A stretch of DNA of 64,000 nt from an uncultured Chloroflexia bacterium (GCA_963700285.1 CAVOXA010000010.1:96001-160000), one strand, 5' to 3'. Shown: positions 21,959 to 41,945, counted from the first letter of the stretch. A program made the numbers and translations. Notes: generated by a model from the letters alone, not told the origin.

Positions 21959-22705
21959 ATGGCAGAAGAATTGACAAGCGAGTTGGACCTGAACGAGGAA
22001 AGCCTCTGCCCCGAATGCGGCGCAGCCATGGATGAAGGCGACATGGTCTGCCCCCAGTGCGGGGCTGAATTTGGCTACTATTGTCCCGAGTGTGACGAGG
22101 AGGTTCCCGCCGACGCCTGCGTCTGTCCCCACTGCGGCGCAGAGATGGATGAGGGCTTTGAAAATGAGGGTGAATCCGAGCCGGAGGGAGAGCGAGCAGC
22201 TAACGGTACGAACTGCGGTGAGTCCATAGATAACGAGGACAAAAAGTGCCCCGAATGCGGCGCAGTCATGGATGAAGGCGATACAGTCTGCCCCCAGTGC
22301 GGGGCTGAATTTGGCTACTATTGCCCCGAGTGTGACGAGGAGGTTCCCGCGGACGCCTTCATCTGTCCCCACTGCGGTGCAGAGATGGATGAGGGCTTTG
22401 AAGATGAGGAGGAAGACGCGGAACATGGGGGTGAGTCCAATCCGGAGGGGGAGCGAGCGGCTTTCTGTGCGAATTGCGGTGAGCCCATAGAAAAAGAGGA
22501 CAAAGAGTGCCCCGCCTGCGGCGTGGATTTGTGTCCCGATTGCGGAAGCCCGCTGGAAGAGGACGACGAGGTCTGCCCAGAATGCGGCGCCGAGTTCGCG
22601 TTTTCCTGTCCAGACTGTGGTGAGGATCTCCCGGCCAACGCAGTGATCTGTTCCCACTGCGGCTATAACTTCGTGGACGAGGAGGAGGAGGAGGAGGATG
22701 ACTGA
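21959..22705 (+). CDS. Acidic poly-zinc-ribbon protein (14 CxxC)
   Basis: Repeated CPxCG knuckles, very Asp/Glu-rich; AAGGA RBS before ATG 21959. Confidence 0.85.
   Translation: MAEELTSELDLNEESLCPECGAAMDEGDMVCPQCGAEFGYYCPECDEEVPADACVCPHCGAEMDEGFENEGESEPEGERAANGTNCGESIDNEDKKCPECGAVMDEGDTVCPQCGAEFGYYCPECDEEVPADAFICPHCGAEMDEGFEDEEEDAEHGGESNPEGERAAFCANCGEPIEKEDKECPACGVDLCPDCGSPLEEDDEVCPECGAEFAFSCPDCGEDLPANAVICSHCGYNFVDEEEEEEDD
22007..22504 (+). repeat. Intragenic tandem duplication, 240-bp period
   Basis: Lines at 22021 and 22261 are nearly identical; the second copy carries an 18-nt insertion. Confidence 0.92.
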
Positions 22706-23540
22706 GGGCGGCATCGACCTCATCCTCCTGAAGCCTGACCCGGTCCTTGAGGGCCCCGACACCACCCGCTGCCCGGCCTGCGGCACCGGCGTCTATCTCA
22801 ACGATGGCATCTGCTCAGCCTGCGGCCAGGTCTATTGTCCGGGATGCGGGCATTCCCTCGAAGATGATACGTTTGAGGACGAGGGCCTCGAAGACGAGGG
22901 CCTCGAGGACGAGGGCCTCGAGGACGACGATACCTGCCCGAACTGCGGCCTGGCGCTGAGCTTTCCCTGTCCTGGCTGTGACTTTCCGGTTGCCAGCGGG
23001 GCCAAGCGCTGCCCCGAGTGCGGCGTCCTTTTTGTACTGCGCTGCCCCGCCTGCGATGTACGCATCCTTGATGGAGCCGAGGCATGTCCCGATTGTGGCC
23101 AAGCCTTCGCGCTGGAAAGGCGCACGCTGGCAACTATTTTTGCCTCGGAGCCTGGGCTAGTCTTGCTCAAGTGTCCGGCCTGCATGGTCAAGTTCGGCAG
23201 CGAGATGGGAGCCTGTCCCGGGTGTAACCAACGCGTCTGCCCCGAGTGCTATCTACTGTTAAAGGACGAGGAACTCGATTGTCCCCACTGCGGCTGCCAT
23301 GCCGCCCGGCCCTGCCCTGCCTGCAAAGCCAGCGTAGGTTTGGGGTCCCCAGAGTGTCCTGCTTGCGGCCAATCCCTCTGTCCAGCTTGTGGCGCCGGAG
23401 TAGGGGAGAACGACACAAACTGCCCCAGGTGCGGCACAGAACTGGAGTTGTGTTGCCCCCAATGTGGCGCCGACCTGGAGCCTCAGATGATGCACTGCCC
23501 CGCATGCGGCCTTAGCTTTGGCCCAGACGACCCGGACTGA
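22698..23540 (+). CDS. Poly-zinc-ribbon protein (18 CxxC)
   Basis: 18 CxxC knuckles; start overlaps upstream stop (ATGACTGA); poly-GAG upstream provides the RBS. Confidence 0.85.
   Translation: MTEGGIDLILLKPDPVLEGPDTTRCPACGTGVYLNDGICSACGQVYCPGCGHSLEDDTFEDEGLEDEGLEDEGLEDDDTCPNCGLALSFPCPGCDFPVASGAKRCPECGVLFVLRCPACDVRILDGAEACPDCGQAFALERRTLATIFASEPGLVLLKCPACMVKFGSEMGACPGCNQRVCPECYLLLKDEELDCPHCGCHAARPCPACKASVGLGSPECPACGQSLCPACGAGVGENDTNCPRCGTELELCCPQCGADLEPQMMHCPACGLSFGPDDPD
22875..22927 (+). repeat. 15-bp coding tandem repeat (EDEGL)x3.5
   Basis: GARGACGAGGGCCTC repeated. Confidence 0.9.
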
Positions 23541-25128: not shown

Positions 25129-25815
25129 ATGGGAGAATCTGCAGAATCCGTACCCATCAGACCCTTCGCCTGGGAGGAGCCCCTGCGCCGGATCGCGTTG
25201 GTGATCGCTCGCCTGGGCCTGGCCTTTCTTTTCTTCTCGCAGCTCTTTTGGAAGCTTCCCCCCCAGTTCGGCTGTGGCTCTGAATTCGACTTTTCCAGCG
25301 AGGGACCCGATGGCGCGCTGATCCGCAAGAGTGGCCTGTGTGACTGGGTCGGTCTTGAATCTGTCTATGCTGACCGCGAACGGACTTTCTTTGTGATTCC
25401 CAGCTCTGATGGCGGTACCCTTTTCTCCATTGGCCTGGATCCACTGGTCAAGCTCAATGGAGTCTTTGTCAGCCATGTCGTGCAACCAACCTTTGGCGCC
25501 TTCGGCTGGGCGATCTTTCTTGCCGAAGCCTTCGTCGCGGCCACGCTCTTCCTGGGTCTTCTCAGTCGTGGGGGCGCGCTCGTTGCACTCTTGCTGTCGC
25601 TCCAACTGATGCTGGGTCTGGCCGGCGCCTGGGATCCCGCGACCCATCTCAACGAGTGGGAATGGAGCTACCACCTGATGGTCCTGCTGTCGCTCGTCCT
25701 GCTTGGTATTACTCCCGGCCGCATCTTTGGGCTGGATGCACTGCTAAGACCCCGTCAGGCTGCCAGCGCCGCCCGCGGCCGATGGCTGGCCAAACTGTAC
25801 CTAGCTCTCAGCTAG
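25129..25815 (+). CDS. DoxX/TQO small subunit DoxD-like membrane protein
   Basis: RLGLAFLFFSQLFWKLPP, EAFVA..LFLG..SR, EWEWSY; AAGGAGAGGAG RBS. Confidence 0.85.
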   Translation: MGESAESVPIRPFAWEEPLRRIALVIARLGLAFLFFSQLFWKLPPQFGCGSEFDFSSEGPDGALIRKSGLCDWVGLESVYADRERTFFVIPSSDGGTLFSIGLDPLVKLNGVFVSHVVQPTFGAFGWAIFLAEAFVAATLFLGLLSRGGALVALLLSLQLMLGLAGAWDPATHLNEWEWSYHLMVLLSLVLLGITPGRIFGLDALLRPRQAASAARGRWLAKLYLALS

Positions 25816-25872
25816 CACCACCACTTGGGTAGCCCTGTAACGCTGCCCCACCCTGGTACATAGGAGACGTAA

Positions 25873-26721
25873 ATGGTTCTTTCCAGAACGCTTGCAGGAC
25901 CCGCAACAGACACTGCTGGCAGCCCGACCGGCGAAGGGACACCGTTCGTTTGGAAACTGTGGGTTTATACCAACTATGATTGCAACCTGAGTTGTACCTA
26001 TTGCGTGGCCGAGTCCAGCCCGCGTGCTGCGCGTAGAGGACTGGACCTGGAGACCGTACAGCGGCTCGTGGACGAGGCCATTGCGCTGGGCTTTGGCCAC
26101 CTGCTCTTTACCGGCGGCGAGCCCTTCATCCTGGACGATATCTATGATATGCTGGCCTACGCCTCAGCCCGGGCTCAGACAACCGTCCTGACAAATGCCA
26201 TGCTGCTGCACGGCAGTCGCTTGGAACGACTGGCAGCCATCGCCAGCGACAGGCTGACGGTTCAGGTAAGCCTGGATGGCGCCCGGCCCGAGCACCACGA
26301 CGTCTATCGCGGCGCGGGTACCTGGGCCAAGACCATGGAGGGCATCCAGCGCCTGCAGGTGCGCGGACTGCACCTGCGTCTGTCTACGACCGAGACGCCG
26401 GCCAATAGCGACTACCTGGCGGAATTGTACGCACTCCGTCGTTCCCTGGGTATCCCCGAAAAGGATCACGTTATCCGGCCGCTGGCCCACCGGGGCTTTG
26501 CCCGGGAAGGGACGGAGGTAACCGTCGACAACTTGATGCCCGAGGTTACCGTCACTGCGGATGGCGTCTTCTGGCATCCGCTGGCCTCGCCCAGTAGCTG
26601 TGACATGCAGGTGAGTAACAGGATCTTTCCCCTGGCCACGGCTGTGGACTGTATCCAACTGCAACTCGACCAGTTGCTGCGCGCCAAGCACGGGCTGCCA
26701 CAGGCCATCACTTGAGGCTGA
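25873..26721 (+). CDS. Radical SAM protein (Rv1681/MoeX-like), probable penultimate selenocysteine (...QAIT-U-G*)
   Basis: YTNYDCNLSCTYC, FTGGEPF, LTNA, QVSLDG, DGVFWHP. ORF-track stop TGA 26713 is followed by GGC TGA and a SECIS-like hairpin. Ends at 26715 if not recoded. Confidence 0.85.
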
Positions 26722-26727
26722 GCCGCG

Positions 26728-26744
26728 GGCTTCTGGAGGAAGCC
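26728..26744 (+). promoter_or_regulatory. Candidate bacterial SECIS element
   Basis: GGCTTC-TGGAG-GAAGCC stem-loop starting 12 nt after the in-frame UGA, with G in the apical loop. Confidence 0.6.
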
Positions 26745-26756
26745 GAGAACAGTACG

Positions 26757-26779
26757 CATCCTGGACGGCGTCCAGGATG
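26757..26779. terminator. 10-bp perfect hairpin (terminator or stabiliser)
   Basis: CATCCTGGAC-GGC-GTCCAGGATG; no adjacent U-tract. Confidence 0.45.
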
Positions 26780-26851
26780 GCAAACCTGCTGCACATCCAG
26801 GATTTTCTTTGACGGTGGGATCACGTTATTAGATCTAGGAGGGGGGTTACG

Positions 26852-27361
26852 TTGACCAAGACCATGCGCGAGGCGCTCAGCCGCCAGGCGCCGCTATGGC
26901 CCATCGCCCTGAGCCGCGTGCTCATCGGAGTGCTGTGGTTGGGGACGCTGCGCTGGAAGCTACCACCGGACTTTGCCCCCGCATCGGGACGGGGGTTATT
27001 TGACTGGCTGCTATTGGAGGCCCAGTACCCGGCCTTTGGTTTCTATGGCGCTTTTGTCGAGTCGATCGTGATTCCCAACTTTTCCCTGTTCGCCTGGCTG
27101 GTCTTTTTGAGCGAGCTAGGCGTGGGGCTGCTGCTGGTGACGGGCACGTGGACGCGCCTGGCAGGCGCCCTGGGCCTTCTCATGTCCCTCAACCTGGGGA
27201 TCGGACTGCTGGAGGTTCCGGGCGAATGGCCCTGGTCCTACATCATGATGGCCATGTGGCACGGGCTGTTCGTGGTTGCGGCCGCAGGGCGCGTGCTGGG
27301 CGTCGATGCCTGGCTGCGCCGCCGGTTGCCCACCAAGTCCCTGTGGCTCGTCTTCACTTAG
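26852..27361 (+). CDS. DoxX/TQO small subunit DoxD-like membrane protein (paralog)
   Basis: RVLIGVLW..LRWKLPP, ELGVG..L.TG.WTR, EWPWSY; TTG start with GGAGG RBS. Confidence 0.85.
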   Translation: MTKTMREALSRQAPLWPIALSRVLIGVLWLGTLRWKLPPDFAPASGRGLFDWLLLEAQYPAFGFYGAFVESIVIPNFSLFAWLVFLSELGVGLLLVTGTWTRLAGALGLLMSLNLGIGLLEVPGEWPWSYIMMAMWHGLFVVAAAGRVLGVDAWLRRRLPTKSLWLVFT

Positions 27362-27409
27362 CCGAGTTCCCTTGATGGGCAAAGGTTTCGCAGCTCACGA
27401 TCTGTCTCC

Positions 27410-27736
27410 ATGGTAGCTGTCGCCGGTCTTGCCGTCACTGCCGCCCTGACTGAGGTTGGCTTCCTGGCCCCGGTACGGACGTTTCTGCAAACGCCCAGTA
27501 TTATGTCCCGGCCGGATGGACAGGGCCCGACCTTGTCTATGCCCCTGGGCCTGCCCAACCCCTGGCTCATCATAATACCTGTGGTACTCCTGGCCGGCTA
27601 TTGGCTGCTGCGCAGCCCCCACAATTGCATGCAGGCCCTGGAAAGCCTGCCGCGCTGGGCTGAGGGCCAGGGACACACCGTCGTAAACCGCCAGGACCTG
27701 GGCGATGGCGTGTGGCAGATCGTGATACGAAAGTAA
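27410..27736 (+). pseudogene. Fused remnant of a YeeE/YedE-type transporter and a TusA/YeeD/YedF-type protein
   Basis: First part resembles the mid-section of YeeE (…GPTL..LG..NPW). Last 38 aa (NCMQALESLPRWAEGQGHTV...GVWQIVIRK) resemble the C-half of YeeD/YedF but lack the N-terminal CP motif. Confidence 0.55.
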
Positions 27737-27740
27737 CAAG

Positions 27741-29189
27741 ATGCCTATCATTGAGATTCTTTACGCGGTCTGTGCAATCCTGCTCGGCCTGTACGGCCTG
27801 AACAACCTGATATTGACCGGGATCTACCTGCGGCACCGCAACGATCCTGTGCCAGAGCCCCCGGCGCCAGCAGACTGGCCCCTGGTCACAGTTCAACTCC
27901 CCATTTACAATGAACTGCACACCGCCGAGCGGCTGCTGACCACCGTGGCGGCCCTGGACTATCCGCGCCACCGGCTGGAGATCCAGGTACTGGACGATTC
28001 CACCGATGCCACCCGTGAACTGGCGGCCCGCGTCGTCAAAGGTCTCCGAAACCAGGGCATTGACATCGTCCATGTTGTACGGCAGGATCGGTCGGGCTTC
28101 AAGGCGGGGGCGCTAGCGGCTGGCATGGACCGGGCCAGGGGCGAACTGATCGCCATCTTTGACGCCGACTTTATGCCGGCAAGCGACTTTTTGCGGCGGG
28201 TGGTGCCCCACTTTGCCGATCCTGCCGTAGGCTGCGTCCAGACCCGTTGGGGCCACGTCAACCGCGACTATTCGGCTTTTACCCAGACCCAGGCCCTGGG
28301 CGTCGATGGGCATTTTGTCGTCCAACAGGCGGCGCGGGGCCAGGCCGGGCTGTTTCTCAACTTTAACGGTACGGCTGGCGCTTGGCGGCGGGCCTGTATT
28401 GAGGATGCCGGCGGCTGGCAGGGAGATACGCTCACCGAGGACCTGGATCTCAGCTACCGCGCCCAATTGCGCGGCTGGCGGATCGCCTATCTACCAGAGG
28501 TCGTCGTTCCCGCAGAGTTACCGGCCCAGATCAGCGCCTTCAAACGGCAGCAGGCCCGCTGGGCCCAGGGCAGCATCGAGACAGCAAGAAAGCTCATAGG
28601 CCCCCTGCTCCGTTCCGGCCAGCCCCGGCATGTCAAGTTGGAGGGCGTTCTGCACTTGACCGGGTACCTGGTCCACCCCCTCATGCTGTCGATCATCTTG
28701 CTCACCTTCCCCATGAGCTTCTCCCGCAGTTGGGTTGTGCTGGGCATCCCCTGGCTGATGGTCACCGCTGCGGGTCCTCCCCTGTTATACATTGTGGCCC
28801 AGACCGGTGGTGGCACAGAATCACGCCGTCGCCTACGATTCCTGCCCCTATTGGTCATGTTGGGCATGGGCTTGAGCCTGAGCAATACGGGGGCCGTGCT
28901 ACGGGGGGCGCTGGGAATCACCCGAAGCTTCCAGCGCACGCCCAAGTTTGACCTGCAGCAGTCAGCGGATGCCTGGGTCGGCAGCGCCTATGCCCTGAGG
29001 GGAGACTGGCTGGTCCTGGGTGAGGCGGCGCTGGCCATCATGGTCCTGCTGATGTTTGCCATGCCCAACATCCGTTGGACCTTTGTGCCCTGGTTGCTCC
29101 TGTACGCCGGCGGCTTTGGCTATGTGGCCGCCATTAATCTCCACCAGACCCACCAATTGCGCCGATGGCTGGCCAAGCAGCCCAGATGA
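27741..29189 (+). CDS. Processive GT2 glycosyltransferase (cellulose synthase-like)
   Basis: VTVQLPIYNE, LDDSTD, GFKAGAL, IFDADF, TEDLD, QQARWAQG. Confidence 0.95.
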   Translation: MPIIEILYAVCAILLGLYGLNNLILTGIYLRHRNDPVPEPPAPADWPLVTVQLPIYNELHTAERLLTTVAALDYPRHRLEIQVLDDSTDATRELAARVVKGLRNQGIDIVHVVRQDRSGFKAGALAAGMDRARGELIAIFDADFMPASDFLRRVVPHFADPAVGCVQTRWGHVNRDYSAFTQTQALGVDGHFVVQQAARGQAGLFLNFNGTAGAWRRACIEDAGGWQGDTLTEDLDLSYRAQLRGWRIAYLPEVVVPAELPAQISAFKRQQARWAQGSIETARKLIGPLLRSGQPRHVKLEGVLHLTGYLVHPLMLSIILLTFPMSFSRSWVVLGIPWLMVTAAGPPLLYIVAQTGGGTESRRRLRFLPLLVMLGMGLSLSNTGAVLRGALGITRSFQRTPKFDLQQSADAWVGSAYALRGDWLVLGEAALAIMVLLMFAMPNIRWTFVPWLLLYAGGFGYVAAINLHQTHQLRRWLAKQPR

Positions 29190-30648
29190 GCACCAGGTAC
29201 AAGGGTACGTATTCCACAAGTCGAACCGCGTCATACTCGCGCGGGTTGGCCGGGTCCTGGTAGGTCAGGTAGGACAGGGCCACAACGGCGGAAAAATAGA
29301 TGCCCGGCAGGAGAAAGCGGCTGATTCTGCTGTCTTCCGAGCGCGTGGGAGTGAGAAAAGGCAACAGAGGGATGAGCAAGGTCACGTACCAGGGATGGAC
29401 CGTCGTCGCCAGGAGCAGATAGGCAGCCAGGGGGACAATAGCCAGTCTCAGGAGGGCCAAATTGCCATCACAGCGGCGGCTCCAGCGCCAGACGCCCGCC
29501 AGCACCAAACCCAGCATGCCCAGCGAGAGCAGCTTCGCAGTCCGGATCGGCCCAGGCCCGACAGCCTCCAGCGGTACGGCCCCTGGCGTTGGGTAGCCAG
29601 AGATCGCCACCTCCAGCCAATGATACAGCCCGCCATTATAGTTCCAATAGGTGCTATAAATGCGGATTGCACCAAATAGCCCTGTACCATCCAGCGGGCC
29701 CAGCAGGCCCCATCCTCCGCCCAGGGCAAAAGCAGCGCTGATCGCCACGACCAGCCCACCGTAAACCAGCACATAGCGCCAACCCCAACGCCGGCCTACC
29801 ACCGGCAGCAGCAGTGCCGGCAGAACTTTTGTCAGCGTCGCCGCAGCCAGCGCCACCACCGATAGCAGGCGCGAGTGCGCGGATACAAAGGGCCGGCGGT
29901 CCCCTGTGGCCGGCACGACGAGAGCCCACAGCGCGGCCATCATCAGGCAGATCATCAGCGCATCCACGACATGGGCGCCATGGGCGAACTCTACGACGAC
30001 CAGAGGGTTCCACAGGTAGATGAGCACCCGCGTGCCTGGCAGCCCGAGCCGGCGCAGCAGATCCATCACCAACGCACCCGTCAGCAGGTCCAGGAGTACG
30101 GCAGTGACCTGGAAAGCCAGGGCACTGCCGGGGACCAGGCGGTACACGGCGGCGAAAAGCGCCTGGGCTGCCGGCAAGTACGGCGAGGCCATCCAGTTAT
30201 TGTTTACTAGGGTCCGTTGGGGCGAATCAAGGGCATCGAGCAGCGGAGAATTCACCGGCAGCGCGTAGGGGCTTATGCCGGCGTTGGCCAGCCGGCCATC
30301 CCAGATGTAGCGCCAGATATCGTCGGACAGCGTGGGCATGGTGAACAACAACGTGGTACGAAAGACCAGCCCCAGGCCCCAGATGAGAAAGAGCGCCCTC
30401 CGCCGCTCCGGCTGTCGCAGCGACCACCAGACGGCCAGCCCGTAGAACACAAAAGCAGCCGCATACAGCCCCAGAAAGGGCACCGTCCGCTGCCGTAGGT
30501 TCCCCTGGGTGACCATGCCAGCGAAGCACACTTCGACCGCCAGACCCAGCCCGGCAAGGATCCACGGGGCCCGGATCCCCCTAGCGCCTCGGAGATCCTC
30601 TACCTGTAGAGGGAGGCCACCCCGGGGCCCTTCAGATACCTGAAGCAT
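29134..30648 (-). CDS. GT-C (GT87/DUF2029-like) membrane glycosyltransferase
   Basis: LSDDIWRYIWDG, SPYLP, YLWNPLVVVEFAHGAH, TTVHPWY; start uncertain. Confidence 0.88.
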   Translation of the reverse strand: MLQVSEGPRGGLPLQVEDLRGARGIRAPWILAGLGLAVEVCFAGMVTQGNLRQRTVPFLGLYAAAFVFYGLAVWWSLRQPERRRALFLIWGLGLVFRTTLLFTMPTLSDDIWRYIWDGRLANAGISPYALPVNSPLLDALDSPQRTLVNNNWMASPYLPAAQALFAAVYRLVPGSALAFQVTAVLLDLLTGALVMDLLRRLGLPGTRVLIYLWNPLVVVEFAHGAHVVDALMICLMMAALWALVVPATGDRRPFVSAHSRLLSVVALAAATLTKVLPALLLPVVGRRWGWRYVLVYGGLVVAISAAFALGGGWGLLGPLDGTGLFGAIRIYSTYWNYNGGLYHWLEVAISGYPTPGAVPLEAVGPGPIRTAKLLSLGMLGLVLAGVWRWSRRCDGNLALLRLAIVPLAAYLLLATTVHPWYVTLLIPLLPFLTPTRSEDSRISRFLLPGIYFSAVVALSYLTYQDPANPREYDAVRLVEYVPLYLVLIWAAWPAIGAIGGSGGD

Positions 30649-30663: not shown

Positions 30664-32202
30664 TCACCTCGGTACTTCCTCACGAAACACGGGAGCCAGC
30701 ATCTGGTCCACCGGCGCGTACCGGTCTGTGAGCGTCACCGCAAGACCTTCGGCCAGCAGGGCTTCGAGCTCATCAGCGTTGAGCACCTGATTCGCCAGGA
30801 GCGTAACGCCGTCGCCCGCGTCAAACGCCGGAAGGGCAGCCCGGTCCAGAGGCACATCACTGGCAATAATCACAAAGGTGCTGCGCGTCGTTCGGCGCCA
30901 GGCCTCGATGGCGGGCGCCAGGTAGACGTGACGGAAGGTCTGTTGCAAGGTGCGGACATAGGCACGCAGGAAACGCCCTCGGGGGCCGTCGACGATATTG
31001 ACTACGTACAAGCCATCGTCCGCCAGCCATGCCCGGACCCGGTCGTTGAACTCCTTGGTAGTCAAGTGGTAGGGCACCGAAAAGTCATTGAAGGCATCGC
31101 CCATAATCAGGTCATACACGGTCACCGGCTCCCGCTCCAGGTAGAGGCGAGCATCCTCGTTGTAGCTCACGACCTCCGTGTCGCGCTCCAGTCCCAGGTA
31201 ATCGTACGCCACCTCGGTGACCCCGGGATCAATTTCGATGACGTGGACGTCGCTGCCTGGATAAGTGGCCTCCATATACTTGGGAAAAGTATACCCTCCG
31301 CCTCCGATAAAGAGCGCTCGCATGTGGTCATCCTGACTGGCCCGGTAGGCGGTGGCCTCGGCATACATCTGTTCGTAGCCATAGACCAACTTTGTTGGAT
31401 CATCCAGCGAAGTATAACTATGGACCAGCCGATCCAGTGTCAGGACACGGACAGGCTGGCCATCCCGCTCCTGTTCGTGGACCTTGATGCAAAAGTAGTT
31501 GGTCTCGCGCGTACAGGGGGCGTGCAACCACTCCAGATTGGCAGCCACTACCGTGCCGCCAGCCAGAATCAAGGCGGCCAACAGCAACCACAGGGGGCGG
31601 CGGCCCACCAGAAACAACAGGCCCAGCACGAGCAGGACCACCGCCACACCCCAAACGATAGCATGGGTACCCAACCATGAGATCAACAAAAAGCCGGTGG
31701 CAAAGGTCCCCACGATGCTGCCCACAGTACTGGCAGCATAGATGCTGCCCACCGTCCTACCCGTTTTGCTCAAGTCGTGCACGGCCAGCTTGGCCACAAC
31801 AGGCGAAACAGTCCCCAGGATCAAGCTGGGGACAAAGAACAACGCCGCAACCAAGATCAGGATCTGGATGATGATCGGCCAGTCGCCCGGCGTCAGCTTT
31901 CCCAGCACATCCACCGCCAAGATGCCAAAGGAGGACAGGCCGGCCAACACAAAGATGCTGCCCAGCATCTGCAAAGAAGCCCATCGGTCTCCCAGCCTCC
32001 CCCCCAGGTAATTCCCCAGGCTGATCCCGGCTAGCACCACCCCAATGATGCTGGTCCAGGTATAGAGCGACACGCCAACGTAGGGCGCCACGATCCGGCC
32101 AGCAACCAGCTCCAAGATCATGGTGCACCCGCTCGAGACAAAGACGATCAGGTATGGATGCCAAAGCCATGGGTGCAGCGGCGCTTGGGAGGTGGCTTCC
32201 AT
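30664..32202 (-). CDS. Fused MFS/spermidine synthase-like methyltransferase
   Basis: Seven TM (ELVAGRIVAPYVG...WTSIIGV) plus LFIGGGG, IEIDP, EDAR, GDAF, PYHLTT, LTDRYAPV. Confidence 0.92.
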   Translation of the reverse strand: MEATSQAPLHPWLWHPYLIVFVSSGCTMILELVAGRIVAPYVGVSLYTWTSIIGVVLAGISLGNYLGGRLGDRWASLQMLGSIFVLAGLSSFGILAVDVLGKLTPGDWPIIIQILILVAALFFVPSLILGTVSPVVAKLAVHDLSKTGRTVGSIYAASTVGSIVGTFATGFLLISWLGTHAIVWGVAVVLLVLGLLFLVGRRPLWLLLAALILAGGTVVAANLEWLHAPCTRETNYFCIKVHEQERDGQPVRVLTLDRLVHSYTSLDDPTKLVYGYEQMYAEATAYRASQDDHMRALFIGGGGYTFPKYMEATYPGSDVHVIEIDPGVTEVAYDYLGLERDTEVVSYNEDARLYLEREPVTVYDLIMGDAFNDFSVPYHLTTKEFNDRVRAWLADDGLYVVNIVDGPRGRFLRAYVRTLQQTFRHVYLAPAIEAWRRTTRSTFVIIASDVPLDRAALPAFDAGDGVTLLANQVLNADELEALLAEGLAVTLTDRYAPVDQMLAPVFREEVPR

Positions 32203-35198: not shown

Positions 35199-37298
35199 TT
35201 ACGCTAGAAATCGCGTGACCTCAACCAATACCGAGTGGGTACGCGAGTTGCGGCTGGGCAGCGTGGGCTCCGTGCTGGTCAGGACATTGGCCGCACCAGC
35301 AGTGTCGGTACCGTCCGGTTCAAGCAAAGGCCACACACCTTCCAGAAGGCAGACCACGCCCGGCATGATGTCCTCGGTCACCCTGGCTCCGATACGCATC
35401 TTGCCCTGGGGGCTGGAAACGATGACCTTTGCGCCGTTCTCTATACCCCTTTCCGCTGCGTCATCGGGGTGCATCCACAGCGCCTGCTTCTCTTGCTCCC
35501 TGAACCAGGCGATATTATGATACTGGGAGTGGACGCGGTATTTCGGGTGCGGCGTAATCAGCCTCAATGGGTGGCTTTCAGTCGTTGGAAACGTCCTGAG
35601 CTTGGGGATCGGGGCATATCCCGTCTCAGCATAGGCCGCTGAGGCTATCTCCACCCGGCCCGATGGCGTACTCAGCGGATGCTCCTGTGGATCGGCGACA
35701 AAATCAGAGAGACCCACCCGCAACTGATCGGCGCCCAAATAGATGCCAGTACGCTTGAAGGCCTCATAGTCCGCCACTTCCGAGTCTGTGATAAAACCGC
35801 TGAGCCACTCCTCAGCGCTCTTGCCCTCAGAGAACCCGGCTAGAAAGCCCAGCCTCTCCGCTAACTCACAAAAGATGTCATAGTCGTTCTTGGCTTCGGG
35901 CATGGGTGGAACCGCTTGATTGGAAAACAGCAAATAGTTGCCGCTATCGGGAAAGACGATATCGTCTCTTTCCAAGAAGGTTGTGGTGGGCAGAACCAGA
36001 TCGCAATGACGCGCTGTCGGCGTAAGCACAAAATCATGGCAGACGGAAAAATCGACTTGGGTAAAGGCCCGCATGTTCTTTTTGATGTCGCTGCCCTGCA
36101 CGACAAAATTGCCGCCGACATTATAGATAGCCTTGATGTCGACAGGATAGCCGCCCCGTTTCCCTTCCAGGATGGCATCGGGCCAACAATACTGCGGCAC
36201 GGAGGCCTGGACCGGATTAGAGGGCCAGCCAATCTTTCCCGCGCGAGCAGATGGCTGCACATTCCAGAGGGGAGAACCCGACGAACCGCCCAGGATGCCC
36301 AGATTGCCTGTGGCAACCTGCATGGCTATCGCCATACGGCTTGCTTCCTCCCCACCGATGGTCCGTTGAATGGACCAACCTGGAATGAGGGCGGTCGGGC
36401 GGGTACGCCCATACCGGCGCGCGAACTGTACGATCATCTCGGTGGGTGTGCCACACACTCCCTCCGCCCATCGAGGCGTCCTGGCCTCTCCATCTGCATG
36501 GCCGAGAATGTACTGCTCAAGCTCATCAAACCCGGTACTGTACTTTCGCAGAAAGGCCCGGTCTACCAAGCCCTCTTCAAGCAGTACATACAGCACGGCC
36601 ATCATCAGGGCCGTGTCCGTCCCGGGAAGAACCGGGATCCATTGCGTACCCAGCGTCATTGCCGTCCTTGACCGGCGGGGATCGATGACGATCACCTCGA
36701 TCCCTCTCGATCTAGCCTCGCGGATGTGGGCCTCTGTGTCGCAGCCCATGCGGGTGTCGGCGATATTCGCGCCCCACAGGACAATCAGGTTGGAGAATTG
36801 CAGGGTAGCCGGGTCAATGCCTGCCGGCGCCCTCCCCAGAACATAGGGAACAGCAAAGCTGGCCGCGCCCGTACTATAGTTGCCGGTCGTCCAGGTAAAA
36901 CCACCAAACATTGCCAGAAACCGTTTTGTCAGGCCGCCGGTGTTGTGCAGCGCACCCCTGCAAGAACCACTCCCTCCCAGGTAGAGTATCGCCTCGTTGC
37001 CATACCTGGCCTTGATGCCGGACAGCCGCTCAGCCACATAGTCGAGAGCCTGTGGCCAGGAGATTTCCTGGAATTCGCCCGAACCCTTGGCCCCACTTCT
37101 GAGCAGCGGTCTCTTGATCCGATCGGGGGCGTATAGGGCCCTCTTCATCTGGCGTCCCTTTTCGCAGCCATACATCGTCGGTTTGGCCAAGGGGTTGTTG
37201 GTAATTCTCGCAACGCGGCCGTTCTTGATGTGGGCCAACAACGGGCACCCACCACCGCAGTCTAGGTTGCACGAAACCGGTAGCGTTCTTGTCGACAT
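35199..37298 (-). CDS. DMSO-reductase-family molybdopterin oxidoreductase, copy 2
   Basis: CNLDCGGGC...CEKG Fe-S motif, GNYS Mo-Ser ligand, LPTTTFLER, TPSGRVE, RVHSQ; no Tat signal. Confidence 0.95.
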   Translation of the reverse strand: MSTRTLPVSCNLDCGGGCPLLAHIKNGRVARITNNPLAKPTMYGCEKGRQMKRALYAPDRIKRPLLRSGAKGSGEFQEISWPQALDYVAERLSGIKARYGNEAILYLGGSGSCRGALHNTGGLTKRFLAMFGGFTWTTGNYSTGAASFAVPYVLGRAPAGIDPATLQFSNLIVLWGANIADTRMGCDTEAHIREARSRGIEVIVIDPRRSRTAMTLGTQWIPVLPGTDTALMMAVLYVLLEEGLVDRAFLRKYSTGFDELEQYILGHADGEARTPRWAEGVCGTPTEMIVQFARRYGRTRPTALIPGWSIQRTIGGEEASRMAIAMQVATGNLGILGGSSGSPLWNVQPSARAGKIGWPSNPVQASVPQYCWPDAILEGKRGGYPVDIKAIYNVGGNFVVQGSDIKKNMRAFTQVDFSVCHDFVLTPTARHCDLVLPTTTFLERDDIVFPDSGNYLLFSNQAVPPMPEAKNDYDIFCELAERLGFLAGFSEGKSAEEWLSGFITDSEVADYEAFKRTGIYLGADQLRVGLSDFVADPQEHPLSTPSGRVEIASAAYAETGYAPIPKLRTFPTTESHPLRLITPHPKYRVHSQYHNIAWFREQEKQALWMHPDDAAERGIENGAKVIVSSPQGKMRIGARVTEDIMPGVVCLLEGVWPLLEPDGTDTAGAANVLTSTEPTLPSRNSRTHSVLVEVTRFLA

Positions 37299-37348
37299 AC
37301 ACGCATCCTTGGGAATAGTCAGCGAGGAACAAAGCCCTCGCCATTGTT

Positions 37349-39451
37349 TTAGAAACGCGCCTGCGTGACCTGAACCAGAACAGAGTGGGTACGCGAGCTG
37401 TAGCTGGGTAGCGTGGGCTCCGTACTGGTCAGGACATTGGGTGCCCCGGCCGTTTCGGTGCCATCCGGTTCAAAGGAGGGCCACACGCCCTCCAACAGAC
37501 AGACCACACCTGGCATGATGTCCTCGGTCACCCTGGCTTCAATGCGCATCCTGCCCTCAGGGCTGGAAACAATGACCTGCACGCCATTTTCTATGCCCCT
37601 TCTTGCTGCGTCGTCGGGGTGTATCCACAACGCCTGCTTCTCCTGCTCTCTAAACCAGGGGATGTTGTCATACTGGGAATGAACGCGATATCTCGGGTGT
37701 GGGGTGATCAGCCGCAGTGGGTGGCTGCCGGTCGTTCTGAACTCTCTAGGCTTGGGAAAGGAGGAATATCCGGTCTCAGCATAGTAGGCTGTCGAGGATA
37801 TCTCCACCAGGCCCGATGGCGTACTCAATGGCTGGCTCTGGGGATCGGCCACGAAATCAGAGAGCCCTACCCTGAACTGATCGGAGCCCTGATAGATGCC
37901 AGAACGCTTGAACTCCTCATAGTCAGGCACGTCCGAGTCCGCGACAAAACCCTCGAGCCATTCCTCAGTGCTGTTGCCTTCGGAAAAGTCGGATAGAAAG
38001 CCCAGTCTCTCTGCCAATTCACAAAAGATATCATAATCGTTCTTGGCTTCGGGCATGGGAGAAACTGCCTGATTGGAGAATAGCACATAGTTGCCGCCAT
38101 CGGCAAAGACGATGTCGTCCCTCTCCAAAAAGGTTGTAGTAGGCAGGACCAAGTCGCAATGGCGCGCTGTCGGCGTAAGGACAAAGTCATGGCAAACGGA
38201 AAACTCTACCTGGGCAAAAGCCCGCTTGTTCTTCTCGATATCGCTGCCCTGTATCAGCCAGTTGCCGCCGACGTTATAGATCGCCTTGATGTCAGCGGGG
38301 TAGCCGCCGCGCTGACCTTCGAGGACAACATCAGGCCAGCAGTATTGCGGCACGGTGCCCAGGACCGGATTAGAGGGAACCCCAATCCTACCCACGCGGG
38401 GGCCTGGCAGCTTGTTCCAGAGCGGGGATCCCGAAGACCCGCCCGGGCTGCCGAGGTTACCCGTGGCAACCTGCAGGGCAATGGCCATGCGGCTTGCTTC
38501 CTCCCCGCCGAGAGTTCGTTGAATGGACAATCCCGGGATGAGGGCGGTCGGGTGGGTACGGCCGTACTGCCGTGCGAATCGCACGATTGTGTCGGCGGGC
38601 GTGCCACAGATTGCCTCCGCCCATTGTGGTGTTCTGGCCTCCACGCCCGCATTGCCCAGAACGTGCTGCTCCAACTCGTCAAAGCCTAAGCTGTACTTTC
38701 TCAGAAAGGCCCGATCTACCAGGTCTTCTTTGAGCAACACGTACAGTACTGCCATCATCAGGACTGTGTCCATCCCAGGCAGGACAGGGATCCATTGGGT
38801 GCCCAACGTCTTTACTGTCCTCGACCGGCGGGGATCGATCACGATCACCTCGACCCCTCTGGACTTGGCCTCTCGGATGTGGGCCTCTGTGGCGCAGCCC
38901 ATGCGGGTATCGGCAATGTTCGCGCCCCACAGGACAATCAAGCTGGAAAAACGCAGGGTAGCCACGTCAATACCTGCCGGCGAACTCCCCAGGGCATATG
39001 GGACAGCAAAGCTGGCTGCCCCCATGCTGTAGCTACCTACGGTCTCGGTATGGCCGCCAAACATGTTCAGGAAGCGCAGGGTAAGCATCTTGGTATTGTG
39101 CAACGCGCCCCGGATGGAACCAGTTCCTCCCAGGCGGAGTAGCGCCTCGTTCCCGTACCTGGCTTTGATGCCGGACAGCCGCTCGGCTACATAGTCCAGG
39201 GCGTGGGGCCAGGAGATTTCCTGAAACTCGCCCGAACCCCTGGGCCCGGTTCTGAGCAGCGGTCTCTTGACCCGATCAGGGGCATACACGGCCCTGGCCA
39301 TCTGACGCCCCTTTTCACAGCCATGCATGGATGGCCCGGCCAGGGGGTTGTTCGTGATTCCCGTGATGTGGCCATCTTCGGTGTGGGCCAGCAACGGGCA
39401 CCCGCCGGTGCAGTCCAAGTTGCAGGTAACCGCTATCGTTCTTTTCGACAT
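37349..39451 (-). CDS. DMSO-reductase-family molybdopterin oxidoreductase, copy 1
   Basis: CNLDCTGGC...CEKG, GSYS ligand; colinear paralog of 35199-37298. Confidence 0.95.
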   Translation of the reverse strand: MSKRTIAVTCNLDCTGGCPLLAHTEDGHITGITNNPLAGPSMHGCEKGRQMARAVYAPDRVKRPLLRTGPRGSGEFQEISWPHALDYVAERLSGIKARYGNEALLRLGGTGSIRGALHNTKMLTLRFLNMFGGHTETVGSYSMGAASFAVPYALGSSPAGIDVATLRFSSLIVLWGANIADTRMGCATEAHIREAKSRGVEVIVIDPRRSRTVKTLGTQWIPVLPGMDTVLMMAVLYVLLKEDLVDRAFLRKYSLGFDELEQHVLGNAGVEARTPQWAEAICGTPADTIVRFARQYGRTHPTALIPGLSIQRTLGGEEASRMAIALQVATGNLGSPGGSSGSPLWNKLPGPRVGRIGVPSNPVLGTVPQYCWPDVVLEGQRGGYPADIKAIYNVGGNWLIQGSDIEKNKRAFAQVEFSVCHDFVLTPTARHCDLVLPTTTFLERDDIVFADGGNYVLFSNQAVSPMPEAKNDYDIFCELAERLGFLSDFSEGNSTEEWLEGFVADSDVPDYEEFKRSGIYQGSDQFRVGLSDFVADPQSQPLSTPSGLVEISSTAYYAETGYSSFPKPREFRTTGSHPLRLITPHPRYRVHSQYDNIPWFREQEKQALWIHPDDAARRGIENGVQVIVSSPEGRMRIEARVTEDIMPGVVCLLEGVWPSFEPDGTETAGAPNVLTSTEPTLPSYSSRTHSVLVQVTQARF

Positions 39452-39452
39452 A

Positions 39453-41945
39453 TTACACATCCTCTAACAAGATCCCCCGCCCTCTCCGTCTGCGAATCAG
39501 GGAACTGGACAGAGCGATCGCGATGAGGAGGACCCCAGCAAGCATACTAACCGCCAGGCCGGTGCGGAAGGATGGCGGGCTGTATCTGAACTCGACGGTG
39601 TGTTTCCCCTGCCGCAGAGGGACAGCTCTGAACAAATAGTCAGCCTGGTAGATCCGGTCCTCTCGCCCATCTACAAACACCTGCCAGCCGGGATAGAAAG
39701 TGTCGGTTAGCACCAGGAACCCATCCGCCTGAAGCTCGGTCTCGATCACAACCTTGTGTGGCGAGTACAATGCAATGTTGGGTGAGGGTGGCCAATTGCG
39801 GCTGACGAGTGGCAAATAAACATCTCCCGTACTTGGGACCGACCCAGGGCTCTCTGCTTTTGCGGCGAGCCGATCACCCTGGTCCTGCACTGGGAGGGGT
39901 TCCTCCTCCAGAATGACACTACGGCCTGGATCAAAGCCCTCACTCAGCAAGCGGCTCAGTACCGCCTGCTCTAAGGGAATGACTTCCACCTCGTAGACGA
40001 CAAAGGCTCTGGGCAGGACCGATTTGTTCTCATAGACCTCATGACCCCCACCGGTGTAGGCGCTGGTATAGCCCGGGAGTTCGGTTCCCTTTTCCACGAG
40101 CGCATACTTGACCCCAGCCAGATTGCGCAGCGTCTCACTTTCGCCCAGGGCTTCGAGGAATACCTCGTATCGCCGCAGGGCCAATTGAGAGACATGGCCT
40201 TGAGCGCTATAGAGACCGTAGGCAGTGGCCATATCCTCCAGGAGGTACTCCACCATGTCCTCGCGGCCAAGAGAGAACACCCGGTATAGGCCCAGATTCT
40301 GTTGCAGGAAGCCTGTGGACCCGGTCTGCCGTGCATAGTACGAGCCCTCGCGCACCGGATTGATGGCAGTTCCTCCTGCCAGTAAAAGGTCTACCACAAT
40401 CAAACCAACCAGCAGGATCTGAAAGGCGGGCGCCTTGATCCGCCTCTTGTTCCAAAGGCAGATGAGCAGGAAACCTGCATTGCTAAAGAATACAAAAAGC
40501 AGTACAGGGTTCAGGGACGCCAGCGTCATACCCGGGTTGTCCGAGAGCTGAATCAGCGGGAGCCGGATGAGCCCGCGGACCAATATCAAGATCCGCCCCA
40601 GCCACTGTTCGGGAACCAACCCAGTCCCCAGGGTTTCGAGACGCTGGGCCACTTGTTGGCCAAAGGCCACTCCCGTCAGCAGCATCAGGGAAAAGGCCAG
40701 GTTCAGCCAGCCCAGTATTCGCCAAAAAGAGGAGAACCGGCTGGATTCCAGGCCAGCGCGGTCCCCTACCAGGGCATCATAGCCATAGCCGGCCAGGACA
40801 GACAGGGAAAAGGTAACGGTGAGCAACCATCGAGCCGGCACCCGAAAAAAGTTAAAGCCGGGCACATGGACCAACAAACCGTACAGGGGGGTGTAACGCC
40901 CCAGGGCAAGCAGGAGGGAAAACCCCGCCAGCAGGGCAAAGAAGGTCACGTTCCTGTCGTACTTCCGCTTGAGCCAGGCCCAGGGAACCAGCATCAGGGG
41001 CAAAATGCCGACGTAGCCGTGCAACTCTTCAAAGAGCCCTTCCCCTTTGAAACCGATAACCGGATTGCCATGGATGCCTGGGAAGAGAAAGGTCAGCGGG
41101 TGGTAGGGAGGAAGGGAGAACACGGTCATCATGCCATGGCTCAAACCTGTGGCCCGGAGCGAAAGCGCCTTCAGTTCCCAGGTTGGAGCAATCTGGACGG
41201 CGGCCAACAAGAGCCCGGCGGCAACGGCCAGGGCCATCAGAGACAGAAGGATGGCTGTCCCTTTTCTCTTGGCCAGGGGGGTGGTTTCGGCATCCCGCCA
41301 CAGACCATACAGCCAGAAGGCGCCATAGGCTCCCAGAGCGAGCAGGGTATAAAAGACAACCTGCGGATGGGACGCGAAAACCTGGAGGGCGATGGCCCCA
41401 CCGCAAAGGATGGCATACGACAGGCTCCTGGTCTCAAGCGTCTTGACAAAAAGAAAAAAGACCAAGGGCAGCCATACGCTGCCCGTCATGATGGGCAAAT
41501 TGGTCAGTTGGGCCATCATGTATCCGCTCAGAGAAAAGGCAAGCGCCATGATGAGGGCACCGACCCTGCTGATCCGCAGCCCGCGGGCCATCACATAGCT
41601 GGCGACACCCGCCACGACAAAATGGGCAACGACGAACCAGCTCAGAGAGAGATGCGGTGACAGAGGAAGAAGGAACAGCAGGTTCAGTGGATTGAGCGCG
41701 ATCACGTCTTGATCCGCCAGTTGGGGGAACCCAAACTCGATAAAAGGGTTCCATAGAGGCAACTGACCTACGCCCAGCAGACGCCCCTTCAAGACGCCCA
41801 GCGGGTAGTGGATCATGACCACGTCCCTGTAGTAGAGCGTCTTGTCCAGCAGGAACAATTCAAAGAAGGAGATGACCGGCAGAAAGAACAGCAGGAGCAG
41901 GACCAAGAGATCTTTGCGGTCGGGCAGCCTTTGTCGCCAATCCAT
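39453..41945 (-). CDS. YfhO-family membrane protein (GT-C type)
   Basis: GQLPLWNP..GFP, HPQ, YVGILP, FFRVPARW, PRAF, LTDTFYPGW, FRYSP. Confidence 0.92.
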   Translation of the reverse strand: MDWRQRLPDRKDLLVLLLLFFLPVISFFELFLLDKTLYYRDVVMIHYPLGVLKGRLLGVGQLPLWNPFIEFGFPQLADQDVIALNPLNLLFLLPLSPHLSLSWFVVAHFVVAGVASYVMARGLRISRVGALIMALAFSLSGYMMAQLTNLPIMTGSVWLPLVFFLFVKTLETRSLSYAILCGGAIALQVFASHPQVVFYTLLALGAYGAFWLYGLWRDAETTPLAKRKGTAILLSLMALAVAAGLLLAAVQIAPTWELKALSLRATGLSHGMMTVFSLPPYHPLTFLFPGIHGNPVIGFKGEGLFEELHGYVGILPLMLVPWAWLKRKYDRNVTFFALLAGFSLLLALGRYTPLYGLLVHVPGFNFFRVPARWLLTVTFSLSVLAGYGYDALVGDRAGLESSRFSSFWRILGWLNLAFSLMLLTGVAFGQQVAQRLETLGTGLVPEQWLGRILILVRGLIRLPLIQLSDNPGMTLASLNPVLLFVFFSNAGFLLICLWNKRRIKAPAFQILLVGLIVVDLLLAGGTAINPVREGSYYARQTGSTGFLQQNLGLYRVFSLGREDMVEYLLEDMATAYGLYSAQGHVSQLALRRYEVFLEALGESETLRNLAGVKYALVEKGTELPGYTSAYTGGGHEVYENKSVLPRAFVVYEVEVIPLEQAVLSRLLSEGFDPGRSVILEEEPLPVQDQGDRLAAKAESPGSVPSTGDVYLPLVSRNWPPSPNIALYSPHKVVIETELQADGFLVLTDTFYPGWQVFVDGREDRIYQADYLFRAVPLRQGKHTVEFRYSPPSFRTGLAVSMLAGVLLIAIALSSSLIRRRRGRGILLEDV

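Follow-up and report, generated by a model that had tools for sequence, protein, structure and literature searches.

We analysed a window of 64,000 nucleotides from the genome of an uncultured Chloroflexia bacterium (positions 96001-160000 of contig C10; genome of 7.05 Mb, 89% complete) and in it a cluster of six genes between positions 25129 and 30648 (Table 1). The second gene encodes a radical S-adenosylmethionine (SAM) protein, here called rSAM, that very probably decodes an in-frame UGA near its C-terminus as selenocysteine (Sec) and is thus a predicted selenoprotein. Its sequence relatives often lie among genes of the type that caps mycobacterial lipoarabinomannan with methylthioxylose (MTX), and rSAM is probably linked to such a capping pathway. 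Judging by the predicted Sec tail and this company, rSAM likely makes a ribose of an unusual kind, bearing sulfur or selenium, that is destined for the cell envelope. An initial annotation, made from the sequence alone, had described the locus; all six genes are real, and their coordinates and order agree with the sequence.

The gene for rSAM ends with QAIT-TGA-GGC-TGA (26713-26721). When the TGA at 26713 is read as Sec, the match to the best family model, NF049973, runs to model position 325 of 326; full members of this family end F-P-C-A, and the UGA falls on the penultimate residue of the model, a Cys. A scan of GTDB supplied 46 loci of relatives. To these were added members found in 21 of 401 Chloroflexota genomes, in 15 of 301 genomes from the phylum to which a Rubrobacter-type host belongs (one of the 15, unpublished, was left out) and on three plasmids. 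This gave 77 loci after the window's own locus and seven duplicates had been dropped and small cuts had been replaced by larger ones; since the family search scored only five candidates per genome, it may miss members. The tails of these loci read UGA-x-stop in 53 cases and UGA-x-x-stop in two, and 16 have a Cys in the last five residues (one of them, L045, is a different protein, a SPASM-ArsM fusion). Six have other tails: two with Cys-Gly plus an extension, the remainder apparently frameshifted or truncated. In 60 full tails the Cys/Sec column is invariant (UGA 47, Cys 13), and a quick tree of the rSAM proteins contains at least three Sec/Cys switches. A 319-aa product with Sec at both UGAs was rejected, because in the relatives any of the three stops can stand at the second codon (TAA 10, TAG 12, TGA 31), which is therefore read as the stop.

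A hairpin with a stem of at least 6 bp and a G-containing loop 16-29 nt on was present at 46 of the 53 UGA-x-stop loci, compared with one of the 16 Cys loci and 89 of 896 TGA-ended control frames (shadow frames included). A stop two codons after the TGA was found in 19 of the 896 control frames. The Cys-form sisters L076 and L040 are without the hairpin. Taken alone, the hairpin of the window is not unusual compared with shuffled sequences (z -0.2 to -1.8), so that the evidence for Sec is comparative. It bears out the Sec that the initial annotation had placed in this gene. The genome itself encodes tRNA-Sec, selA, selB and selD, and one member of the family, with a UGA-Ala-stop end, is separated by about 2 kb from selB-selA-selD on a plasmid of Miltoncostaea oceani. 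The database copies of the nearest 120 homologues stop just before the Sec position. Two further observations concern these elements: a perfect 10-bp hairpin without a U tract lies just after the Sec insertion sequence (SECIS)-like hairpin (26757-26779), its 5' arm being found also in L001, an 89%-identical relative; and selD (C9:56685-57700) is frameshifted in the assembly and bears the expected in-frame UGA.

The best family, NF049973 (Rv1681 family, MoeX group), matches rSAM with 292-294 bits over model positions 72-325, and the full-model test stays below the cut-off of 380. The protein is a distant member or sister subfamily of this group, and the closest relatives by rSAM protein are Chloroflexia or Anaerolineae. 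It resembles the mycobacterial Rv1678-Rv1681 system (NF049986, NF049984, NF049985, NF049973) also in its Rv1678-like membrane protein neighbour, and differs from the Rv1681 family in lacking about the first 70 model positions, in carrying Sec for Cys and in its ties to glycosylation genes; moreover, the family name is without a "(seleno)" label. A single CxxxCxxC motif is present, and only its cysteines (C37, C41, C44) and the tail residue are conserved; none of the auxiliary-cluster cysteines of SPASM/twitch domains were found in rSAM. AlphaFold models the protein with confidence as a radical SAM barrel (pLDDT 91.7; about 83 for the tail). Sequence and fold searches of the PDB returned only generic radical SAM barrels with at most 25% identity.

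Sec within a radical SAM protein is known from TrsS (NF045646) and the CUAEP-tail family (NF040546), but neither scored at E <= 1e-20 against rSAM. A further parallel is ArsS (TIGR04167, with ArsM, TIGR04282 and TIGR04283), a radical SAM selenoprotein with Sec near the C-terminus, whose neighbours are DUF2064, a glycosyltransferase of family 2 (GT2) and, at some loci, ArsM and a phosphorylase. However, rSAM reaches only 47.5 bits with TIGR04167 (cut-off 300, core only), its motif is x-x-U-G/A-COOH and not the GxxU of ArsS, and the GT2 clades differ. The family is not among the 119 selenoprotein families of Table 1 of a 2026 inventory (PMC13188914), in the part of that source covered here, where the radical SAM entries are TIGR04167 and TrsS only; this table is incomplete, since the CUAEP-tail family (partial text of bioRxiv 2022.07.06.499078) is missing from it. 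The portions of deep-Sep (PMC12013277) and BSepDB (PMC13326102) covered here are without the text "radical SAM", and a prior mention elsewhere is possible. A C-terminal UGA with a 7-bp G-loop SECIS has a precedent in SaoC (described in a portion of bioRxiv 2022.07.06.499078). The papers listed for Rv1681/moeX concern tuberculosis biomarkers or vaccines, and among the titles and abstract openings found in the searches none dealt with this family. This is probably a new selenoprotein family.

A capping-type cluster lies about 18 kb from the Rv1681 and Rv1680 genes (both over cut-off) of one complete genome, G685. It comprises FabH, UbiA/MenA, a phosphorylase, an epimerase, a GT2, DUF2064 and a convergent membrane protein, and by gene order, not by name, we take it to be the Rv0533c-Rv0541c region. 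Angala is said to have put forward in 2017 a five-gene model for MTX that starts from methylthioadenosine. The MTX cluster is not known to contain a radical SAM gene. According to passages of PMC8780516, PMC12088412 and PMC8081860, MtxS (Rv0539) forms lipid-linked MTX and MtxT (Rv0541c) transfers it. With the G685 proteins as queries (threshold 1e-6), matches at 76 rSAM loci versus 80 ArsS loci were 27 versus 1 for the GT2, 26 versus 12 for DUF2064, 9 versus 5 for the epimerase, 5 versus 9 for the phosphorylase and 3 versus 0 for the MtxT-like protein, and none at the ArsS loci reached 100 bits. The MtxS-like GT2 groups with 22 of the 33 rSAM-linked GT2s, including the copy of this genome (FastTree, support 87).

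Such genes share an operon with rSAM in L108 and L109, two actinobacterial loci that are near-identical and thus count as one case, where ACAD-PhnD-GT2-DUF2064-MtxT-like-epimerase-CMD-rSAM-Dox lie on one strand (Dox stands for a DoxD-like membrane protein). A phosphorylase is located about 2.5 kb from the operon, so that homologues of all five cluster genes are present, four of them in the operon. L112 resembles them but shows no ACAD, PhnD or phosphorylase in the part read, and L111, L113, L073 and L034 are rearranged versions. Co-directional operons of rSAM and capping genes occur in Chloroflexota, Actinomycetota and Myxococcota, with differing gene orders.

The genome studied here carries its counterparts outside the window. 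A second locus at C10:655982-665422 (L072, to 666359) contains a small GT2, DUF2079, DUF2064 and NUDIX genes; the GT2 is MtxS-like (43%) and lies with DUF2064 at C10:656-664 kb. In L017/L018 and L009 several genes of the second locus adjoin the Sec enzyme. A phosphorylase is encoded at C22:22341-23110 (frameshifted in the assembly), and an epimerase (41%) on C14, whose orthology is doubtful because it is placed in an unrelated glycan locus. No MtxT-type GT-C was matched at 1e-6 in this genome, where GT87-like and DUF2079 GT-Cs are found instead. The second locus also encodes a radical SAM/SPASM protein, an 884-aa multiheme cytochrome c and a protein with an ethylbenzene-dehydrogenase-type heme domain, as well as convergent NUDIX, radical SAM and methyltransferase genes; both of its radical SAM genes are met again next to the Sec enzyme, at 7 and 3 of the 77 loci.

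Neighbours were counted by tblastn within 8 kb with queries from the same loci, each count including the query's own locus. Near rSAM we found DUF2064 (36 of 77), the small GT2 (33), GT87-like (14), NUDIX (13), Rv1679-like (12), CMD (11), epimerase (9), Rv1680-like (8), DsrE/YedF (7), DUF2079 (6), CesA-like GT2 (5), phosphorylase (4) and YeeE (1) genes. With L045 removed and better Dox queries, 38 of 76 loci have a Dox gene, 45 any glycosylation gene and 21 both; for 45 well-flanked loci the numbers are 28 with Dox and 26 with a glycosylation gene. In a sample of Chloroflexota genomes DUF2064 occurs in 18 of 21 rSAM-positive and 84 of 380 other genomes. The profiling that the initial annotation had called for thus returned both Dox and glycosylation genes, and the surface glycan suggested there as the product is supported as well. 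The link to the glycosyltransferases, which it had considered its weakest part, is instead the best-supported functional link. It had missed the core partners outside the window, namely DUF2064, the small GT2, NUDIX, the epimerase, the phosphorylase and the Rv1679/Rv1680 homologues.

What the sequences show directly is a tail that reads UGA-Gly-stop, a hairpin, a Cys/Sec position without exception and partners that recur from locus to locus. As a tentative model, to which we give a little less than an even chance, rSAM might make a 5'-substituted adenosine with a methylthio or methylseleno group, the first step in the pentose capping of an envelope glycan. Its single [4Fe-4S] cluster would cleave SAM to the 5'-deoxyadenosyl radical; the tail Sec would hold the heteroatom group as Se-X, and the radical would attack X as in ArsS, where X is arsenic. 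Formation of a C-As bond by adenosylation is the precedent (partial text of PMC12159101). Import, reduction or recycling of X and the tail might fall to the Dox proteins, joined, where these occur, by CMD, DsrE, a flavoprotein like Rv1679 and a binding protein like Rv1680. A phosphorylase would free the pentose-1-phosphate, DUF2064 would activate it to a nucleoside diphosphate (NDP)-sugar, an epimerase may invert the pentose, and the small GT2 would load the sugar on polyprenyl phosphate. A GT-C (GT87-type here, DUF2079 or MtxT-like elsewhere) would then move the pentose to a surface glycan, possibly that of the CesA-like GT2. In this genome the pathway would be split between the window and C10:655982-665422. 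Hints to sulfur or selenium are the YeeE-YeeD fusion of L001, DsrE/YedF at 7 of 77 loci and a likeness, below the cut-off, between the binding protein and a putative selenate ABC binder (88.5 against 250 bits). X may differ between rSAM subgroups.

Several observations weigh against this interpretation. The hosts are modestly enriched in selA, with 54 of 58 handles (two of which stand for one genome) against 114 of 151 for the phylum, and in two hosts of the UGA form selA had no match. MTX comes from ordinary methylthioadenosine. The GT-C of the window belongs to another family than MtxT: its hhalign probability with the MtxT-like protein is 0.04, and it was rejected as an MtxT orthologue since no similarity was detectable. 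The mycobacterial-type operons L069, L102 and L074 are without glycosyltransferases in the stretch read, and no glycosylation gene was found in the available DNA of 31 of 76 loci nor at 17 of the 45 well-flanked ones. In this 89%-complete genome Rv1680 had no match (nor had it in the controls), and no close homologue of Rv1679 was found. With 102 versus 21 of 401 genomes, DUF2064 outnumbers rSAM about fivefold, so capping mostly runs without rSAM. Finally, the loci of the relatives are kin and not independent, and the neighbour queries were drawn from the same loci.

The same pathway might use rSAM differently, to tailor the sugar by radical epimerisation or redox chemistry on a pentose or NDP-pentose, with the tail Sec/Cys as hydrogen-atom donor. 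Cys serves as hydrogen donor in radical epimerases, and one invariant extra Cys/Sec without an auxiliary cluster, in a tail modelled at pLDDT about 83, would fit; the sequence and fold neighbours of rSAM include BlsE, DesII and BtrN, which act on sugars or nucleosides, and the epimerase EpeE. However, these matches are among the generic ones, a GalE3-like epimerase is already part of the same operons, and sugar tailoring leaves the binding protein, flavoprotein, DsrE and ArsM-like neighbours unexplained. We consider it unlikely.

Rather unlikely, too, is that rSAM is a non-orthologous ArsS that adenosylates methylated As(III), the pathway making arsenosugar glycoconjugates. ArsM-like methyltransferases flank rSAM at 7 of 76 loci; in six of these genes a UGA stands in frame within a UxGA motif, and one gene exceeds the cut-off for arsenite methyltransferase. 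The ArsS loci also carry DUF2064 (20 of 80), the small GT2 (13 of 80) and ArsM (9 of 80), six of the 33 rSAM-linked GT2s group with ArsS-type GT2s, and ArsS was found in one of 70 rSAM hosts, a count that covers the hosts alone. On the other hand, most rSAM-linked GT2s are MtxS-like, and Dox, CesA-like GT2, GT87, ACAD and PhnD genes occur at none of the 80 ArsS loci (41 of them under 8 kb). ArsM is present in the two closest relatives but is not enriched genome-wide (44 of 70 hosts versus 98 of 151 in the background), and it was therefore rejected as a required partner; a search of this genome, which is 89% complete, yielded no ArsM, the best score being 78 bits with a cut-off of 263. The six UGA-bearing ArsM-like genes beside rSAM, several of them tandem-domain, probably encode unannotated selenoproteins. 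Their in-frame UGA stands in DDWFR-U-IGGA in L028 (183-1535), L034 (3560-4897), L037 (6367-7821), L004 (3-473) and L020 (7295-7907), and in WTC-U-IAGA in L085 (4243-4827). The fusion in L045 (7632-10157) is an 842-aa Rv1681-like radical SAM-SPASM-ArsM protein that ends CC and lies near a phosphate transporter and a uridine-phosphorylase-like gene.

It is improbable that rSAM and Dox form a thiol/selenol redox or stress module that has no chemical link to the glycosyltransferases and merely shares envelope-gene islands with them. Mycobacterial-type operons do contain peroxiredoxin-like, glutaredoxin, CMD and disulfide genes and no glycosyltransferases, Rv1676/dsbF is under the redox sensor Cmr (from a portion of PMC5499769), and nearly every member of the class has the CesA-like GT2 family (37 of 41 genomes of relatives). 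Shared islands alone, however, leave the recurrence of the capping-gene operons in three phyla in different orders and the co-occurrence with DUF2064 unexplained. Adenosylation of a methyl-sulfur or methyl-selenium group is preferred over all of these readings, if only tentatively.

The model of the initial annotation, in which a DoxD heterodimer oxidises imported thiosulfate or a selenium oxyanion via the quinone pool and feeds rSAM, is very improbable: it draws on the DoxD matches, the intact YeeE-YeeD of L001 and the Dox/NDH-2-like fusion of L007, but the thiosulfate:quinone oxidoreductase (TQO) model NF041179 scores the Dox proteins at only 21.9 and 20.9 bits (cut-off 300), no DoxA subunit (PF07680) was found in this 89%-complete genome, two Dox genes occur at just 3 of 38 Dox-bearing loci, and YeeE is present at 1 of 77 loci and dead here.

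What likeness there is to TQO DoxDA lies in the DoxD-clan fold. The two four-helix membrane proteins flanking rSAM are paralogous as proposed: they exceed the Pfam DoxD cut-off of 22.7 bits (29.2 and 26.2 bits; doxB also matches DoxX), are 30% alike and have WKLPP and EW.WSY in common. The loop cysteines noted in the first, Cys49 and Cys71, are at least 90% conserved in a 102-row alignment and absent from DoxB. The AF2 model of DoxA (pLDDT 93.5) has NACHO/TMEM35A as best fold match (Z 9.4, rmsd 3.6, 126 aligned), and a Foldseek search with DoxA gave nothing at E <= 0.001. DoxB is 38% identical (E 2.6e-21) to the membrane gene product heading an Rv1678-81-type operon on a Mycolicibacterium vanbaalenii plasmid. 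A role in thiol redox or as scaffold may be assumed for the Dox proteins. Near the plasmid operon, L069 (14439-16807) also has genes for a TrsS/Tes-like radical SAM protein and a DVU1556-like methyltransferase. In L006, L007 (11098-13467) and L033 a gene that joins a Dox domain to an NDH-2-like oxidoreductase, accompanied by a DUF1440 gene, converges on rSAM; in L020 (4971-6560) Dox and NDH-2-like are separate genes, the second following the first.

The piece of yeeE/tusA is a remnant, as had been proposed, and a dead one, since L001 has an intact 406-aa YeeE-YeeD (TsuA/TsuB) fusion of which the window lacks 366 and 567 bp (933 bp), including the start and the TusA CPxP motif. The deletion junctions lie near 27376/27377 and 27628/27629. 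Contigs from the public runs of three studies, one possibly the source sample, span both of them (first junction X18 and X2, second junction X1), and assembly errors were thus rejected as an explanation. The fusion is present in L001 and absent in L002, and looks like a lineage-specific insert now deleted here. It hints at sulfur or selenium supply as a pointer and not as a working part.

Table 1. Features of the locus, with positions in the window.
Feature	Position	Strand	Evidence
doxA, DoxD/DoxX-clan four-helix membrane protein, distant Rv1678-type	25129..25815	+	Pfam DoxD 29.2 bits
Rv1681-like radical SAM protein, 282 aa, predicted C-terminal Sec-Gly	25873..26721	+	NF049973; UGA 26713-26715, stop 26719-26721
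SECIS-like hairpin, 3' UTR	26728..26744	+	7-bp stem, GGA loop starting 22 nt from first base of UGA
doxB, DoxD/DoxX-clan membrane protein, Rv1678-like, without loop Cys	26852..27361	+	Pfam DoxD and DoxX
Dead yeeE-yeeD fusion remnant	27377..27736	+	Alignment to L001
Processive CesA-like GT2, extra paralogue	27741..29189	+	Pfam GT2, motifs
GT-C (GT87/MptA_B-like) membrane transferase	29134..30648	-	ESM Atlas 0.99
Fused MFS/spermidine-synthase-like gene, 15 bp upstream of GT-C	30664..32202	-	NF037959 439 bits

The last two genes of the cluster were correctly recognised as a processive GT2 (motifs D/DxD/TED/QQARW) that overlaps a convergent GT-C, by 56 bp. The GT2 is a possible maker of the acceptor glycan. 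The GT-C has no Pfam or NCBIfam match, is placed with the GT87/MptA_B clusters of the ESM Atlas and is a candidate for the final transferase from a lipid-linked donor. The MFS/spermidine-synthase-like gene, a possible source of methylthioadenosine, is beside rSAM in L001 only (1 of 77 loci). A scan of the locus for promoters and terminators was uninformative, and the RNA run X18 contains two short exact pieces of the region, which do not demonstrate transcription. Shares among the sequencing runs were small and indicate no habitat. Elsewhere in the window, two tandem, very Cys-rich acidic zinc-ribbon repeat proteins are encoded upstream of the cluster (21962-23540), and a tandem pair of paralogous molybdopterin oxidoreductase genes lies at 35199-39460. 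Among the relatives, a Cys-form subgroup (L038:7098-8795, L039, L103-L105) is fused to or beside a metallophosphoesterase, with a FAD oxidoreductase and a TIGR04283-type GT2.

The predicted Sec tail would add a selenoprotein family that gene callers overlook, since just two residues follow the UGA and the SECIS belongs to the 3' UTR. An orphan radical SAM family, long labelled MoeX, would now be tied to a defined glycan-capping pathway. In a wider and somewhat unlikely generalisation, the Rv1681/MoeX group would consist of multi-phylum radical SAM selenoproteins whose swinging Sec tail hands methyl-chalcogen or methyl-arsenic to the adenosyl radical for methylseleno-, methylthio- or arseno-pentose caps, and the mycobacterial Rv1678-Rv1681 operon would be the detached upstream arm of MTX-type capping. 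The proposal defines a testable substrate class and predicts that selenium-, sulfur- or arsenic-bearing surface sugars may occur in sediment and soil Chloroflexota and Actinomycetota.

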